Shown: positions 6,300-49,489 of the stretch, one piece after another
Layout: every line of letters starts with the position of its first letter
How positions within the stretch are numbered: the first letter of the stretch is position 1
Origin: an uncultured Gammaproteobacteria bacterium
GTDB lineage: Bacteria; Patescibacteriota; Patescibacteriia; UBA9934; CAZDDW01
NCBI GenBank assembly: GCA_964504365.1
Contig: CAZDDW010000005.1
Location: forward strand, 1,630 to 65,629
Direction of reading: 5' to 3'
DNA length: 64,000 nt
Position numbers and translations under genes: made by a program
The notes under the pieces: generated by a model
The model's database searches: none
Told to the model about the DNA's origin: nothing
What the model saw: only the letters and a program-made list of their open reading frames with translations

Positions 6300-7061
6300 A
6301 TGGCAGATTGCTTGATTGAGGCAAAAAATCTGTACAAGCAATACGAAAATGATGAGGTCGTAACAAAAGTTTTGTTCGACCTCAATTTTAAAGTTGAGTG
6401 TGGTGATTTCTTGGCGCTGATGGGGCCATCCGGTTCTGGTAAGTCAACTCTGATGCATATCCTTGGTTTTTTGGATCGACTGACAACCGGTGAGTATTTA
6501 TTTAATGGCAAGAGCGTGCATTCAATGAACGATGATGAGCTGGCTCGAATGCGACGTGAAGAAGTCGGGTTTGTGTTTCAGGCTTTTAATTTGCTGGCTA
6601 AGACATCGGTTTTAGATAATGTTTTATTACCAACAATGTACACTGACATACCGTATGCTGAGCGTGAAAAACGTGCGAAGAAAGTTATTGAACAGGTTGG
6701 GTTATCGCATCGTTTAGATCATTTATCTAATCAGCTGTCTGGTGGTGAAAAGCAGCGTGTGTCAATCGCTCGAGCCATGATCAATGATCCTTCAATTATT
6801 TTTGCTGACGAGCCAACTGGAAACCTGGATAGTAAAACCACGATTCAGATTTTGAAGCTACTTCAAGATCTAAACAAAGAAGGACGAACGATTATCATGG
6901 TTACACATGAGCCAGAGCTGACTCCGTATACAAAGCGTATTTTAAATTTGCTTGATGGGCGCTTGATCAAAGATCGCCCAGCTCCGTTTAAAGATGTGAT
7001 AAAAGAGCCACCAGAAGCGTACACACAAAACGCATCTAGAATAAATGGTGGAGATTTATGA
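6300..7061 (+). CDS. ABC transporter ATP-binding protein (MacB/LolD-like)
   Basis: Walker [13 protein letters not shown] signature [14 protein letters not shown], Walker [13 protein letters not shown]. Confidence 0.9.
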
Positions 7062-8290
7062 AATTAGGAGACCTGATTCAATTATCTGGTGCAGGATTAA
7101 TGCGCAACAAGTCGCGCTCTATCTTGACCATGCTTGGGATTATTATTGGAATCGCTGCAGTGATGCTCATGCTTTCGATTGGAAAAGGTGCTGAAGGGCT
7201 GATTATTTCGCAGGTGGCAGATTTGGGTTCTGATTTAGTTTATGCCGAGCCAGGAAGCGGTGATGCTGATGAGGGGCCGCCAAATATTTTTGTTGAGCAG
7301 ACGCTAACCTTGGATGATGTTGAAGAACTGCGTAAGCACGATGGTTTTGTTGAGGTTGGTGCATTTTTGTATTCTGATGCTGTTGTTCAATACAGTACAG
7401 AAGAGGAGCGTTCGCAGATTGTTGGAACAACACCAGAGAATATTAGTATCTTCCCAGCAGATATGGCTGATGGGCGTTTTATTGATGAATCAGACGTTGA
7501 ATCAAATGCAACAGTGGCTGTGTTGGGAAGTCAGATTAAGCGGAAATTATTTGGTGATCAGGATCCGATTGGGCTGAGAATTAAAATTAAGAACACTCGT
7601 TTTAAAGTCATTGGTTACGTCGAAGAACAGGGAACACGCTTTTTTCAGAATTTAGATGAGCAGATTTATGTGCCAATTACCACGTTGCAAGATAAGGTTC
7701 TTGGCTTAGACTATATTAATTTCTTGGCTGCGCGCACGACTTTGCCGATTGATCTTGCTAAGGACGAAGTTCGCTTTGTGTTGCGTGATTCACATAACCT
7801 AGACAATCCAGAAGGGGATTTGAGTAAAGATGATTTCTTTGTCTCAACCCAGGAAGATGCGGTTGAGATTGTTGGTACAGTTACGAGTGTGCTAACTTTG
7901 TTGTTGTCGTCTGTTGCTGCAATTTCTTTGTTGGTTGGTGGAATTGGAATTATGAATATTATGCTTGTGTCAGTAACTGAGCGAACTCGTGAGATCGGAT
8001 TACGTAAAGCTGTTGGGGCTACTAGACAAGATATTCTAAGGCAGTTTTTGGCCGAAGCAGTTATGTTGACTTTGCTTGGGGGATTGATTGGAATTATTCT
8101 TGGTGGCGGCACTTCATTTTTGACCGCACTGGTATTGTCACAATTTTTAGAAGATTGGAAATTCTTTTTCCCGGCTGATGCTATGGTTTATGCGACCGTA
8201 ATTGCGGCGATTGTTGGTTTGGTATTTGGGATCTTCCCAGCTCGTCGAGCTGCGAAACTAGATCCGATTGATGCACTGCGGTACGAATAG
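7058..8290 (+). CDS. ABC transporter permease, FtsX/MacB-type with large periplasmic domain
   Basis: 410 aa; TM1, ~230-aa periplasmic domain, then 3 TM; translationally coupled to ATPase. Confidence 0.8.
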   Translation: MKLGDLIQLSGAGLMRNKSRSILTMLGIIIGIAAVMLMLSIGKGAEGLIISQVADLGSDLVYAEPGSGDADEGPPNIFVEQTLTLDDVEELRKHDGFVEVGAFLYSDAVVQYSTEEERSQIVGTTPENISIFPADMADGRFIDESDVESNATVAVLGSQIKRKLFGDQDPIGLRIKIKNTRFKVIGYVEEQGTRFFQNLDEQIYVPITTLQDKVLGLDYINFLAARTTLPIDLAKDEVRFVLRDSHNLDNPEGDLSKDDFFVSTQEDAVEIVGTVTSVLTLLLSSVAAISLLVGGIGIMNIMLVSVTERTREIGLRKAVGATRQDILRQFLAEAVMLTLLGGLIGIILGGGTSFLTALVLSQFLEDWKFFFPADAMVYATVIAAIVGLVFGIFPARRAAKLDPIDALRYE

Positions 8291-8312
8291 GTTTGATTTC
8301 TTTCGAAACATA

Positions 8313-8554
8313 GCGGAACCCTTCAGGGTTCCATTTTGTTTAGCCGGCCACGGATGACTCGGACATTCTTTTTGTGAGAAGCACTCGGCCTATTCGTAGA
8401 ATGATTAAAGAATGTTGTCAGGCCTCGTTCGGGTTCCGCCGGGACCGCCACCGTTAGTTGTAATACGAGATAATGATGTGGGCCCGGCTCCACATGTTCT
8501 CACAAAAAGAATATCCTCGTCATTTATATCTGACGATCAGAAAAGTGGCCGGCC
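8313..8554. repeat. ~210-bp TIR element (GCCGGCCAC...GTGGCCGGCC) with fused upstream terminator hairpin, copy 1
   Basis: near-identical copies at 27855-28300 and 41855-42090; internal inverted repeat ACATTCTTTTTGTGAGAA / TTCTCACAAAAAGAATAT. Confidence 0.8.
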
Positions 8555-8600
8555 AATTAAAAAGACCTCGCTGCGTGCGAGGTTTTGTGGTACGTGAGAT

Positions 8601-10639: not shown

Positions 10640-10897
10640 ATGAATGATGTAAATATTTGCCAATCATGCGGCATGCCAATGAAGGAGGAAGTGGACTACG
10701 GGAAGACTGAGGATGGGAGTCCGAGCTATGAGTACTGTGCTCATTGTTTTCAGGAGGGGAAATTTACTTTTGAATGTGGATCAGTGGAGGAGTTTGCCGA
10801 ACATGTGCTTGAGGCAATGGCTGGATCTGAGGAAGCACCTGAAATGGACAAAGAAGAAATGTTGGTTGTTTTGAAAGGGTTGGGGAGGTGGAAGTAA
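10640..10897 (+). CDS. zinc-ribbon domain small protein
   Basis: 85 aa; CxxC...CxxC (CQSCGM ... CAHCF). Confidence 0.5.
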   Translation: MNDVNICQSCGMPMKEEVDYGKTEDGSPSYEYCAHCFQEGKFTFECGSVEEFAEHVLEAMAGSEEAPEMDKEEMLVVLKGLGRWK

Positions 10898-10898
10898 A

Positions 10899-10970
10899 AA
10901 AGTAGAAAGTAGAAGGTAGATAGTAGAAAGATTCAAAATCTTTCTACTTTTAACTTTCTACTCTCTACTA
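10899..10970. repeat. palindromic array of GTAGAxA heptamers (copy 1)
   Basis: agtagaa agtagaa ggtagat agtagaa ag - loop - inverted copies; related arrays at 38006-38083 and 40392-40478. Confidence 0.8.
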
Positions 10971-19296: not shown

Positions 19297-19384
19297 GGAA
19301 TGACGCCCGCAAGGGCGTCATTTAAATTAAAACACCCCTACCGTTTCGTCCGGTGGGGGTTGTTGTGTTCTTGCGTTCGACGGC

Positions 19385-21722: not shown

Positions 21723-21862
21723 GGCTAGCTCCTTTGATTGGGTTGCAAGAATCGTGTTAGGAATGAACAGAAATAGATATCAGCATAGCATGAATAAGCC
21801 CGTTTGTCAAGGCAATTAAAACACCCCCACCGTTTCGTCCGGCGGGGGCGTTTGTTCTGGCT

Positions 21863-27210: not shown

Positions 27211-27828
27211 ATGGATTACGAGGAGGAAGAACTGGAGGGTTTTTCACCTGAACCAGATTTCGAGGATGAATCGCCCGGGGACGGCATTGATCCACGAACC
27301 GAGTTAGCCAAACAAATTTTAACGCAAGTTCACGAGACAATTGGGAACGTTATAAATTTGCTTGAAGGCGGCTCTGTTGAAGCTGGTAGACAGCAGCTGA
27401 CTGATTTGATTACTTCAAAACAAGGTTTGGCTTCTGCAGCCGGAGGAAATGCAGGACAAGTTGTTGAAGGTGTTTTTGATGGACAGAACATGGTTGGTTC
27501 TGATGGTAAGACTTACACAGTGCCAGCAAATTACGCTAGTAAATCTCGATTAGTCGAAGGTGACATTTTGAAGCTCGTTATCAAGGATGACGGGGCTTTT
27601 GTTTTTAAACAGATCGGTCCGATTGAGCGACGACGGGAAACAGGAAAGTTGGCTTATGATGCAGCTACTGGCGGGCATGTAGTAATGGGAGAGGATGATC
27701 AGACTTGGAAGGTGATTACTGCGTCCGTGACATTCTTTAAAGGTGAGCCAGGGGATGAGGCCGTGGTCTTGGTACCAAAGTCAACACCTTCAACCTGGGC
27801 TGCGCTTGAGAACATTGTGAAGAAATAG
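27211..27828 (+). CDS. hypothetical acidic protein with possible OB-fold segment
   Basis: 205 aa; D/E-rich N-term; Gly-rich beta segment VVEGVFDGQNMVGSDGKTYTV. Confidence 0.45.
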   Translation: MDYEEEELEGFSPEPDFEDESPGDGIDPRTELAKQILTQVHETIGNVINLLEGGSVEAGRQQLTDLITSKQGLASAAGGNAGQVVEGVFDGQNMVGSDGKTYTVPANYASKSRLVEGDILKLVIKDDGAFVFKQIGPIERRRETGKLAYDAATGGHVVMGEDDQTWKVITASVTFFKGEPGDEAVVLVPKSTPSTWAALENIVKK

Positions 27829-27854
27829 GGAATGACAGACTTTAGTCTGTCATG

Positions 27855-28300
27855 GTCAGAAACGTAGCGGAACCCTTTAGGGTTCCATTTTGTTTTTGGC
27901 CGGCCATGAGGACTCAGACATTCTTTTTGTGAGAAACACTCGGCCAGGACTAGGTAAAGTGAAAGAAAGATATCAAGGCCTCGTTCGATGTTCCGCCGGG
28001 ACCGCCACCTTTATGTGATTAAACGAGATGATGGTGTGGGCCCGGCTCCACGTGTTCTCTCAAAAAGAATATCCTCGTCCTTTAATATGGCCGGCCACCC
28101 ATCTTGCCGTAAGAATAAAATGACGAAGGGTTTTGAATTGAGGTACGATCGGAGGCCGGGCTGCCAATATTTCTTCGAGGTCCCCACAACGGTAATCGTC
28201 CGGCCGACGCCGAGTGAGGCCCGATATCATCCCTTCATCACACCACGAATAGGCCGAACGCTACCACAATCAAAACCCTGAGTCATTCAGTGGCCGGCCA
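27855..28300. repeat. TIR element copy 2 with fused terminator hairpin and a ~200-bp nested insertion bounded by GGCCGGCC
   Basis: module 27898-28098 matches copies 1 and 3; extra module 28099-28300 ends in a second GTGGCCGGCCAATAAAG end. Confidence 0.75.
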
Positions 28301-28421: not shown

Positions 28422-29999
28422 TTGATTGGAGAAAGAATGTCCCGTTACATGCACATCACCATCGGTATCCTGATCACAATGAGCCTGGCCGCAACAGCCG
28501 TGGCCAAGCCGCGCATCATGCGCGCGGAAAATTTCCATCGTACCTGCGACCTCGAGTCCTTCCAGAACTACAACGACCTGCAGCTGGAAACCGAGCATTT
28601 CACTCTGGGCGCGCCGATCTGTATGGGCGAAGGCTCTGTGGCCTACGACCCGGATTATCTGAGTAGCGCCGATCGTCTGGACAGAAGGCTGCTTCACGAG
28701 GAGATTCGAGTGGTCAGCCAGGCTTACCTGGATGTACTCGAGCGCATGGTCCATGCCAACTGGGGTCGTGACGATTACGCCGACGCCTACCTGGGCTCGT
28801 CCATCCGTCAGCTACGTCTAGGCATGTGCTTTCCACACCGCACCTATGAGGTAGACGATGGCAGCGTACGCATGTGGGCTCACTTCGTGTCCGATCCGAG
28901 TGGCGCAATCAAGGGGCCGAGCTACCTCAACCTGCTTCTCGAGCGAGCGGTCGAACTGCGTGACCGTGATGCAGTCGAGGCCTTGCTCTATCTGTTCACG
29001 GTCATTCGCAAGAATGATCCCATTAGCGCAGCCAGCAACTGCGAGTACTTGCAGAACAGCCTGTTCGAGAACGAGCTGGCCGGCTACCTCTACGCCGGAG
29101 ACTTGGAGGCGGCTGATGCTTTCGTCCAGGAATTCGGTTTCCTAGCCGACTCAAGTGCCTTCTCGGTCTACGAGTTCTATAGTGATCGTGTCTGGGGTGA
29201 CCAGGTCAAGATGGTCGCCAGTGACATCTACGAGGATCACCTGCAGGCTGGTGACTATGATCTGGCCGATGCTTTGGTCAAGCACTACGGACTGGCTCCA
29301 CCACAGTGCGCCACCAGCATCCAGGAAACCATGCGCCAGCACTTCAGGCAGGCCTTCCTGGACTACGATTTGGATACTCCGGATGAGGTTCTGGAGATGA
29401 TGGCTCGTTACGACTACGACGTCAAGATGGTCGAGTGGGCTCGTGAGTGGGGCTACGCCTACGCTGGCTACGCCCTGATGGAGCCATGTTCGGAGCTCGA
29501 ACCACGTTCGGATGAGCTGGACTGCCGATGGCAGATCGAGCTGCGTCTGGATGACATGCCCATGGCCAGTAGGATCCATGTGGTCGAGGCTTCGCTCAGC
29601 TGGTACAGCGGAATTACTGTCGACGATCTGGTGTACAAGCATCAGCTGATGAAGGCCCTCAAGGTCGACATGGACCTGGTCATGCCCAAGCTGGCCGAGG
29701 AGCTCAAGGAGAATGCTCAGCTGGCTTTCGGTGATCTCCTCGATGGGATGGATCATTGGCAGTACACCACGGCCATCTACTACGCCATGGAAGAGATGGG
29801 TTACGAGCCTTTGCTCGATTACCCGAATCCGGTGTTCAGCTGCGACATTCTGCCCTACGGGAACTCGTCGCGCGAGTCCGGGATCTGGTTCCTCCAGTGC
29901 GCTGGCGGCATCGACTACGTCGAGCTCATTGCCACTGGCGAGCAGCACGGCGAGGACTACCGTCAGGCCGTAGAATCCGGTCAGACCTTCATGGACTGA
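28422..29999 (+). CDS. hypothetical secreted protein (signal peptide), GC-rich islet
   Basis: 525 aa; N-terminal signal ITIGILITMSLAATAVA; acidic, Tyr/Asp-rich; long antisense ORF 29151-30002 judged a GC shadow. Confidence 0.55.
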   Translation: MIGERMSRYMHITIGILITMSLAATAVAKPRIMRAENFHRTCDLESFQNYNDLQLETEHFTLGAPICMGEGSVAYDPDYLSSADRLDRRLLHEEIRVVSQAYLDVLERMVHANWGRDDYADAYLGSSIRQLRLGMCFPHRTYEVDDGSVRMWAHFVSDPSGAIKGPSYLNLLLERAVELRDRDAVEALLYLFTVIRKNDPISAASNCEYLQNSLFENELAGYLYAGDLEAADAFVQEFGFLADSSAFSVYEFYSDRVWGDQVKMVASDIYEDHLQAGDYDLADALVKHYGLAPPQCATSIQETMRQHFRQAFLDYDLDTPDEVLEMMARYDYDVKMVEWAREWGYAYAGYALMEPCSELEPRSDELDCRWQIELRLDDMPMASRIHVVEASLSWYSGITVDDLVYKHQLMKALKVDMDLVMPKLAEELKENAQLAFGDLLDGMDHWQYTTAIYYAMEEMGYEPLLDYPNPVFSCDILPYGNSSRESGIWFLQCAGGIDYVELIATGEQHGEDYRQAVESGQTFMD

Positions 30000-48849: not shown

Positions 48850-48922
48850 ACTGTTGACATGAGTGATTTTTGCTGCTGTAATTAAACAAAGACCCCGCAA
48901 GTTTTTGCGGAGTTTTATTTTT

Positions 48923-49489
48923 ATGATAGACAAATCAGAAGCGATCTCAGCAACAAAAGAATATTTCTTGGATCTTCTACACATGTTCGGCGTTTTCTTA
49001 ACGTCGGGATATTCTATTCCACCACAATTTGCATGTGACCGATATGCCTATCAAAGATATTGTGAGCGTTGGGAACGAGTTGAGCGGAACCGTATTTTAT
49101 ATGATTTAAGAAAGCAGAAGCTAATGAAGTTGGAGGAGAGGGGAGATGAGGTGATTGTTGAATTAACTCAGAAAGGCAGAACTGAGGCTTTAAAACAGAA
49201 AATACTCTGCGAGAAAAAAGAATTATCAAAAGGTAATGTTTGTTTGGTTGGTTTTGATATTCCTGAATATACCAGGAAGACAAGATCGGTTTTTCGGCAG
49301 TTTTTGAAAAAGGTTGGATTTAAGCAGTTGCATCAAAGTGTTTGGTACTCTGAGTTAGATTTGGTCGTTCCTTTATGTGAGTTAATTAAGCAGTTGGATA
49401 TTGAGAAATGGGTAGTAGTGTTTAAGGCTGAGATAACCAGTTCTGATTTGTCTTTTGATCCGGCCGTACCAAAAGACCGATCGGTGTAG
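48923..49489 (+). CDS. putative regulator with N-terminal winged helix and C-terminal Cas2/VapD-like (PaaX-C-like) domain
   Basis: ILYDLRKQKLMKLEERGDEVIVELTQKG (wHTH); VCLVGFDIPEYTRKTRSVFRQFLKKVGFKQLHQSVWYSE resembles Cas2 beta1-alpha1-beta2 pattern. Confidence 0.4.
   Translation: MIDKSEAISATKEYFLDLLHMFGVFLTSGYSIPPQFACDRYAYQRYCERWERVERNRILYDLRKQKLMKLEERGDEVIVELTQKGRTEALKQKILCEKKELSKGNVCLVGFDIPEYTRKTRSVFRQFLKKVGFKQLHQSVWYSELDLVVPLCELIKQLDIEKWVVVFKAEITSSDLSFDPAVPKDRSV

Follow-up and report, generated by a model that had tools for sequence, protein, structure and literature searches.

Among the repeats of bacterial genomes, MITEs (for example Correia/NEMIS, ERIC/IRU, RUP and Nezha) are short intergenic sequences without coding capacity that occur in several copies, carry terminal inverted repeats, fold into long hairpins and often lie at gene 3' ends. 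Transposition of the RAYT/Y1 type is not known to leave a target-site duplication. The genomes of CPR/Patescibacteria, about 1 Mb in size, are usually thought to be poor in repetitive or mobile DNA, and our literature search returned no description of MITE-like or REPIN-like repeats in this group. REPINs are extragenic elements of 71-110 bp with two conserved inverted ends, in which the pairing of the spacer is kept by compensatory changes (PMC3116915). In the present study, we analysed a stretch of 64 kb (the window), part of the 98.5-kb marine metagenome contig JGI 3300009374 Ga0118720_1000196, and found an element which is likewise extragenic, with inverted conserved ends and a spacer whose pairing is kept by compensatory changes. 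With slightly better than even confidence, we regard it as a non-autonomous, non-coding foldback repeat family, MITE/REPIN-like, in a clade of marine Candidatus Uhrbacteria (Patescibacteria/CPR). In their source records, the homologues of the MacB-type permease in the window bear the name Candidatus Uhrbacteria or Patescibacteria, and the gene content of the window is chromosomal (DnaK, DnaX, AlaRS, CysRS, ribosomal proteins, RpoA, MurJ).

An earlier note on this DNA had described three copies of a repeat of about 210 bp with more than 85% identity. The repeat is real and measures about 212 bp in the copies 8343-8554 and 41879-42090, and the quoted termini, subterminal arms and conserved core were recovered as described when the sequences were read and aligned. 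The number of copies, however, is four at three loci, as the segment 27898-28300 consists of two copies, one of them inverted; the profile search of the window returned exactly these four. Copy c1 (8343-8554, + strand; nhmmer E=5.6e-75, CM 247 bits) belongs to subfamily A, has the long right end and is located between a MacB-type permease gene (7058-8290) and a small minus-strand ORF. Copy c3 (41879-42090, + strand; CM 250 bits), also of subfamily A, is found downstream of a beta-CASP RNase gene (40475-41827). The remaining locus holds c2a (27897-28097, + strand; CM 175 bits), a subfamily A copy with the short right end ...TTTAATATGGCCGGCC, and c2b (28089-28299, - strand; nhmmer E=7e-63 on the minus strand, CM 194 bits), a diverged, inverted copy of subfamily B. 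These two are joined tail-to-tail, and a single GGCCGGCC at 28089-28096 is common to both. In the 64 kb there are four GGCCGGCC sites against 0.47 expected, all at element ends. The identity of more than 85% applies to c1 and c3, which are 87% identical without gaps and 90% identical in the model-based alignment. It does not extend to the other two, as in the latter alignment c2a is 76-78% identical to c1, c3 and c5 (described below) and c2b about 65% identical to copies 1 and 3.

Five further copies (c5, c6, L052, L054a and L054b) were obtained outside the window from metagenome contigs, which belong to the same marine Candidatus Uhrbacteria or to related ones. Copy c5 (L021:1160-1370), from the same population as the window, and copy c6 (L031:187-397), from a Tara Oceans sample, were traced via the spurious forward-frame ORF calls P0001 and P0003, respectively; c6 shows 71-72% identity and has a short right end like c2a. 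The L052 copy, which is partial, of subfamily B and in + orientation, lies at the MacB locus of a relative with 90% amino acid identity and is 73% identical to c2b. L054a and L054b form a tail-to-tail inverted pair with one GGCCGGCC in common, in a relative with 82% amino acid identity. All nine copies are bounded by the termini (TT)GGCCGGCCAC and GTGGCCGGCC(AA), giving a unit of about 200-212 bp, and the flanks beyond these termini are unrelated between copies, so that the homology boundaries are sharp. A covariance model run over all loci collected detected these nine copies only, with no further diverged ones. In comparison, REPINs typically occur in tens to hundreds of copies per genome with a unit of about 50-110 bp. 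The copy density here was four in 74 kb (the window and 10 kb upstream on the same contig, in which no extra copy was found) plus one on a separate contig.

The search for more copies in public data gave little. Scanning of public genome contigs with the pattern CCGGGACCGCCAC-N(20-45)-GTGGGCCCGG returned only chance matches in high-GC Actinobacteria. A first scan of public metagenomes gave zero matches, the collection evidently being without the source samples, and a second gave only the already known Tara contig of c6. Three viral scans returned nothing beyond one chance 18-mer, the element was unmatched by blastn against phage and plasmid collections, and a reverse-frame ORF search for more copies had no result. 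Several metagenome contigs (L004, L040, L047-L049) end inside the element, as is expected of a repeat, because repeats break assemblies.

The element is non-coding. No reading frame stays open through every copy, as one-base indels and stops break each of them, and a protein-coding element was rejected on this ground. The view that the ORFs inside the copies are not conserved as coding was therefore correct, and the only two ORF calls inside copies in the protein databases are both spurious. At the gathering score, Rfam detected only two tRNAs in the window and did not match the element; when Rfam was applied to the element up to E=10, only spurious terminator-type matches appeared (E of about 1-5). 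Avoidance of restriction sites, or a decoy for them, was rejected since GGCC, CCGG and GCCGGC are as frequent genome-wide as expected, and DGR, CRISPR and TIGR arrays were dismissed as neither an array nor an RT or Cas gene is present.

All nine copies fold into the same branched hairpin, in which a closing stem is followed by a long stem and two local hairpins, and the folding energy is -80 to -94 kcal/mol for every copy (-85 kcal/mol for c1, z=-6.4). The 9-bp closing stem is made by the termini and the long stem measures about 20-27 bp; the multiloop (three-way junction) carries two hairpins, a local one in the left half and a longer, apical one in the right, and 'long' variants have an additional small hairpin ahead of the 3' terminus. 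On the + strand of c1, the left terminal inverted repeat (8343-8351, GCCGGCCAC) pairs with 8545-8553 (GTGGCCGGC). This repeat is the best-conserved sequence block across the nine copies, and 5 of the 9 pairs in helix 1 are invariant. The 5' arm of the long stem (8354-8380, + strand) pairs with 8497-8523 and is 89% complementary to it. In this helix 2, both sides have changed in 13 of 18 pairs, and the arm sequence differs between the subfamilies while the pairing is kept. The local hairpin P3 (8383-8428, + strand; 8383-8391 paired with 8420-8428) carries an invariant 2x2 internal loop TC/TC, read as tandem GA/GA on the other strand. The apical hairpin (helix 6) with the conserved box GTGGGCCCGGCTCCAC spans 8438-8493 on the + strand, the box itself being at 8478-8493. 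The parts conserved in sequence are the termini, the TC/TC loop of P3, CCTC..TC at the junction and the box GTGGGCCCGGCTCCAC. The loop and the box are kept between copies that are only 55-60% alike, and the box is identical in the diverged Tara copy c6.

The fold is unusually well preserved, and it is maintained by compensatory substitutions. In the model-based alignment of the nine copies, standard pairs were present in 91.5% of cells and changes on both sides were found in 27 of 61 pairs, compared with 4-9 in controls slid by 1-3 columns; none of 500 shuffles reached the observed values. Since such an alignment is fitted to the structure, the count was repeated on a structure-blind MAFFT alignment, where double changes were found in 16 of 29 pairs (controls, 3-7) and the paired cells amounted to 91.9%. 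The covariation extends beyond the terminal arms into local, non-terminal hairpins, and in P3 (helix 3) it was seen in 4 of 7 pairs, with up to three pair types, and equally on the structure-blind alignment.

With regard to the strand, the stems contain 27 G-U against 29 A-C mismatches, counted over the union of the pairs predicted on both strands. Taken copy by copy, the MFE slightly favours the + strand (7 of 8 copies); the energy of the consensus fold contradicts this trend, with -64.8 on the reverse strand against -53.9 on the + strand. With a strand-specific RNA, G-U should be tolerated and A-C avoided, and the symmetry thus points to a constraint on complementarity as such, that is, to folded DNA or the use of both strands and not to a single RNA product. 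The equality of G-U and A-C favours neither strand and speaks against an sRNA gene.

Structured small RNA genes, a family of which the earlier note had offered as an alternative, or a cis-acting 3' UTR RNA module are unlikely; in either, the branched hairpin would be the product that functions, and its unpaired boxes would bind a protein or another RNA. The strong covariation throughout the helices, local hairpins included, and the invariant TC/TC loop and conserved boxes beside covarying stems would suit such an RNA, as would the lower per-copy MFE of the + strand; the element L054a, which begins 2 nt past the MacB stop codon, would be co-transcribed there. Besides the parity of G-U and A-C and the better consensus energy of the opposite strand, however, the family has no Rfam match. 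No promoter is conserved across copies (the candidate GTGAGA-17-TAGAAT of c1 is degenerate in the others, and a built-in promoter was rejected), the orientation relative to the neighbours varies, the orthologous site in close relatives is without the element, and c1 lies between facing terminators, where little transcription should enter.

These terminators are a regular feature of the surroundings. An intrinsic-terminator-like hairpin with a T-run (8312-8341, + strand) abuts the left end of c1. As a 30-nt segment, AGCGGAACCCTT(C/T)AGGGTTCCATTTTGTTT, it recurs before c2a at 27866-27895 with a difference at the loop base only, and a different hairpin (41843-41878) precedes c3. The earlier statements that each copy follows a stem-loop and T-run, and that copies 1 and 2 have one hairpin in common and copy 3 another, accordingly hold for the three window loci, and at each of them the hairpin and T-run belong to the upstream + strand gene. 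The 30-nt segment is found nowhere else in the window, the elements behind it (c1 and c2a) are only 78% alike, and both of these copies have the five-T form of the left arm, which suggests gene-conversion mosaicism extending beyond the element or a short flank that moves with it. On the right, a minus-strand terminator (8557-8583; A-run and hairpin 8565-8583) abuts c1, which is thus located between two facing terminators, and an A-run with a hairpin of this kind lies within 5-16 nt of the right ends of c1, c3, c5 and c6. Every solitary copy touches at least one T- or A-tract of a terminator, and the copies adjoin these tracts from either side, with no fixed orientation to the genes around them. 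There is no terminator hairpin on the left side of c5, c6, L054a and L052. The upstream hairpin is therefore a neighbour and not a general part of the element, and the idea of a built-in terminator finds no general support; with regard to the proposal that the element either carries a terminator or targets terminator 3' ends, most copies show a preference for a place right beside T/A-tracts.

Several other sequences were observed around the copies. The exact 10-mer GGGAATGACA (27828-27837, 41829-41838 and L021 1088-1097) is placed 50-72 nt upstream of c2a, c3 and c5 and is absent elsewhere in the window, and both window copies of it directly follow the upstream gene's stop codon. A 46-nt palindrome, TGTGAACAAAAAGTCGCCGGCCGGACATCTTTTGTTCACA, is located at 42376-42421, about 290 nt beyond c3 on the downstream side, with a GCCGGCC centre and arms that resemble the subterminal arms of the element in right-end/left-end order. 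Outside the copies there is no other intergenic palindrome centred on GCCGGC, and this one may be a relic or a junction-like remnant. A 525-aa ORF without a Pfam match (28422-29999) directly follows the c2a/c2b pair; its stretch has 56% G+C against the window mean of 46%, and the region may be foreign DNA.

The adjacency to terminators would also suit a cis-acting, bidirectional DNA/transcript barrier, in which large hairpins after terminators would insulate transcription units or stabilise upstream mRNAs, as proposed for ERIC and REP/BIME; the copies would then have spread by duplication or gene conversion and not by transposition. The contact of each solitary copy with at least one terminator T- or A-tract agrees with this, the equally good fold on both strands is what a bidirectional barrier requires, and the same loci are occupied in all population samples. 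Against it, proper terminators already flank c1-c3, which makes an extra barrier look redundant; a generic hairpin leaves the strict GGCCGGCCAC ends and the internal boxes unexplained; and close relatives manage without the element at the same site. We consider a barrier of this kind quite improbable.

The occupancy of one site was compared across relatives in the spacer between the MacB and Na-H exchanger genes, and it was found to be patchy. In the window (100% amino acid identity in MacB) the spacer holds a terminator, the subfamily A copy c1 and the small minus-strand ORF. At 90% identity, L052 has a copy of subfamily B in + orientation, and in L055/L056, also at 90%, the element is absent and a 23S-rRNA-IVP-family gene and a 113-aa ORF are present. 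L054 (82%) carries the A-like and B-like copies tail-to-tail with no cargo gene, and the spacers of L050 and L057 (both 76%) are empty, with 82 bp and 92 bp, respectively. The species that carry the diverged subfamilies share only about 76-82% DNA identity in the flanking gene. The copies c1, c3 and c5 of one genome are 88-90% alike, and c1 and the L052 copy at the same site are 61% alike. This discordance between element phylogeny and locus orthology is as predicted from turnover by insertion, replacement or gene conversion, and a vertically inherited functional locus would not give it. No presence/absence polymorphism was seen among about eight population samples, in all of which the copies are at the same loci. 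No filled and empty pair at high identity was obtained among the loci compared, so no insertion event was directly documented.

Because this spacer holds different small genes in different relatives, the copies could be seen as attC-like recombination sites or cassette boundaries, at which a site-specific recombinase shuffles small hypothetical genes into intergenic hot spots. In attC sites, as in the present element, an imperfect palindrome keeps its folded structure and the short inverse core sites at its ends, with the remainder variable, and the window elements adjoin Pfam-unmatched ORFs, the 525-aa ORF (56% G+C) among them. However, no integrase is present nearby and there is no cassette array or consistent adjacent cargo. 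L054 has an element pair without cargo and L055 cargo genes without an element; the small ORFs of the site show no homology to one another, and a shared cargo gene there was accordingly rejected. The element is also branched, and its 200-212 bp exceed the length of known attC sites; we hold this explanation to be very improbable.

Other repeats of the window are described here for completeness. A second intergenic family (10887-10969, 38008-38081, 40385-40472 and also 45842-45871), placed right after gene ends, consists of hairpins of degenerate heptamers GTAGAAA/GTAGAAG/GTAGATA ... CTTTCTAC. In L055, similar heptamer-repeat arms, GAGTTTTGAGTTATGAGTT and AACTCATAACTCAAAACTC, flank the 23S_rRNA_IVP-family gene inserted after MacB, which hints that a small gene cassette may use the heptamer hairpins as its sites, some empty and some occupied. 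A third repeat, about 41 nt long and with runs of C6/G6 (ACTCAGAACCCCCCTTTAATCCCCCCTTGGAAAGGGGGGAG), is found at 52-92 and 38813-38853, 88% complementary to each other, and has a relative at L021 1110-1150, directly upstream of c5. Finally, two terminator-like hairpins (19325-19366 and 21814-21855; AATTAAAACACCCC..ACCGTTTCGTCCGG..GGGGG) are 88% identical and bracket about 2.5 kb in which long ORFs of the two strands overlap and the G+C content is 54%.

We return to the mobile, foldback reading. A target-site duplication was searched for at offsets from -8 to +5 and no direct repeat was found outside the palindromic termini, in which the GGCC/CCGG palindrome could hide one. A partner enzyme was looked for as well. 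By Pfam, 50 window ORFs of at least 110 aa were scanned and four more were covered via precomputed contig annotation, and there was no transposase-family match among these 54, in agreement with the earlier statement that the window has no transposase. No recognisable transposase or recombinase was detected in the window or in the 10 kb upstream on the same contig, and no RAYT (PF01797) gene in these 74 kb of the window genome. In about 150 kb of related loci the only transposase Pfam match was an unlinked Y1_Tnp in L050 (GCA_965231015.1, OZ246408.1), a 1.0-Mb Uhrbacteria-like genome, in which a gene of 290 aa with PF01797 (2880-3752) adjoins a cold-shock-domain gene. In the 21 kb of L050 examined there was no element copy and no GGCCGGCC site, and this gene was not accepted as the partner, as related repeats were not found around it. 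Two small PaaX_M (Cas2-like) domain proteins (window 48863-49489 and L026 4755-5264) are also encoded in the window genome, with no obvious link to the repeats.

When these results are set against the described systems, the likeness to MITEs made in the earlier note is supported in its main lines. The element is multi-copy, non-coding, intergenic and below about 500 bp, with terminal inverted repeats in all full-length copies, both orientations and a patchy site, and like MITEs it folds into a long hairpin and is often found at the 3' side of genes; on the other side, no TA or other target-site duplication was seen outside the termini, no cognate transposase and no parent IS with matching ends were found in the loci covered, and the subterminal arms covary and are not conserved in sequence. 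The label PATE, also used in that note, is a misfit. These IS200/IS605-derived elements are likewise non-autonomous, with no target-site duplication and with structured single-stranded DNA, often near hairpins, but they are without terminal inverted repeats and have left-end and right-end hairpins in direct orientation, whereas the present termini are perfect inverted repeats of 9-12 bp. In logic the element is closer to REPINs than to MITEs, as it shows no target-site duplication and as diverged subfamilies persist in related genomes in both systems. It differs from REPINs in being two to three times longer and in having a three-way junction and conserved internal boxes in place of a simple hairpin. 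Its conserved end is only about 12 nt, and no RAYT was found, the sole PF01797 gene met being that of L050.

On the preferred reading, an enzyme acting in trans would recognise the conserved GGCCGGCC(AC) ends and perhaps the internal boxes too, and its substrate would be the folded single strand, as in REPIN/RAYT or other HUH-type systems. Such a substrate would explain why pairing is kept over sequence and also why the sites show no duplication. We infer movement as a folded single strand from the covariation and the symmetry between strands, together with this missing duplication. Copies may survive, or may be targeted, right beside the T/A-tracts of intrinsic terminators, where genes would stay undisturbed, and gene conversion between copies would produce mosaics. 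Against this reading stand the negative results on a transposase and a target-site duplication, the uniform occupancy among the population samples and the small number of nine copies. The conservation of unpaired boxes and the local covariation also exceed the needs of a decaying selfish element, and because of these conserved unpaired boxes and local covarying hairpins the rival explanations keep some weight. It is also conceivable, although we think it unlikely, that the hairpin is a functional single-stranded module whose ends, loop and box would be read by a putative CPR recombinase or nuclease, or that it acts as a guide-like or bridge-like RNA itself. If so, the family would represent a new class of mobile or recombination elements that depend on structure and are kept by vertical descent in streamlined Patescibacteria genomes.

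For work on this lineage, the element matters because it breaks the metagenome assemblies, and its invariant GGCCGGCC ends would provide a simple handle for finding the partner enzyme in complete genomes. The presence of diverged subfamilies across species, with the whole fold kept, suggests a long-lived resident of the REPIN type or a functional folded DNA or RNA module in these genomes.
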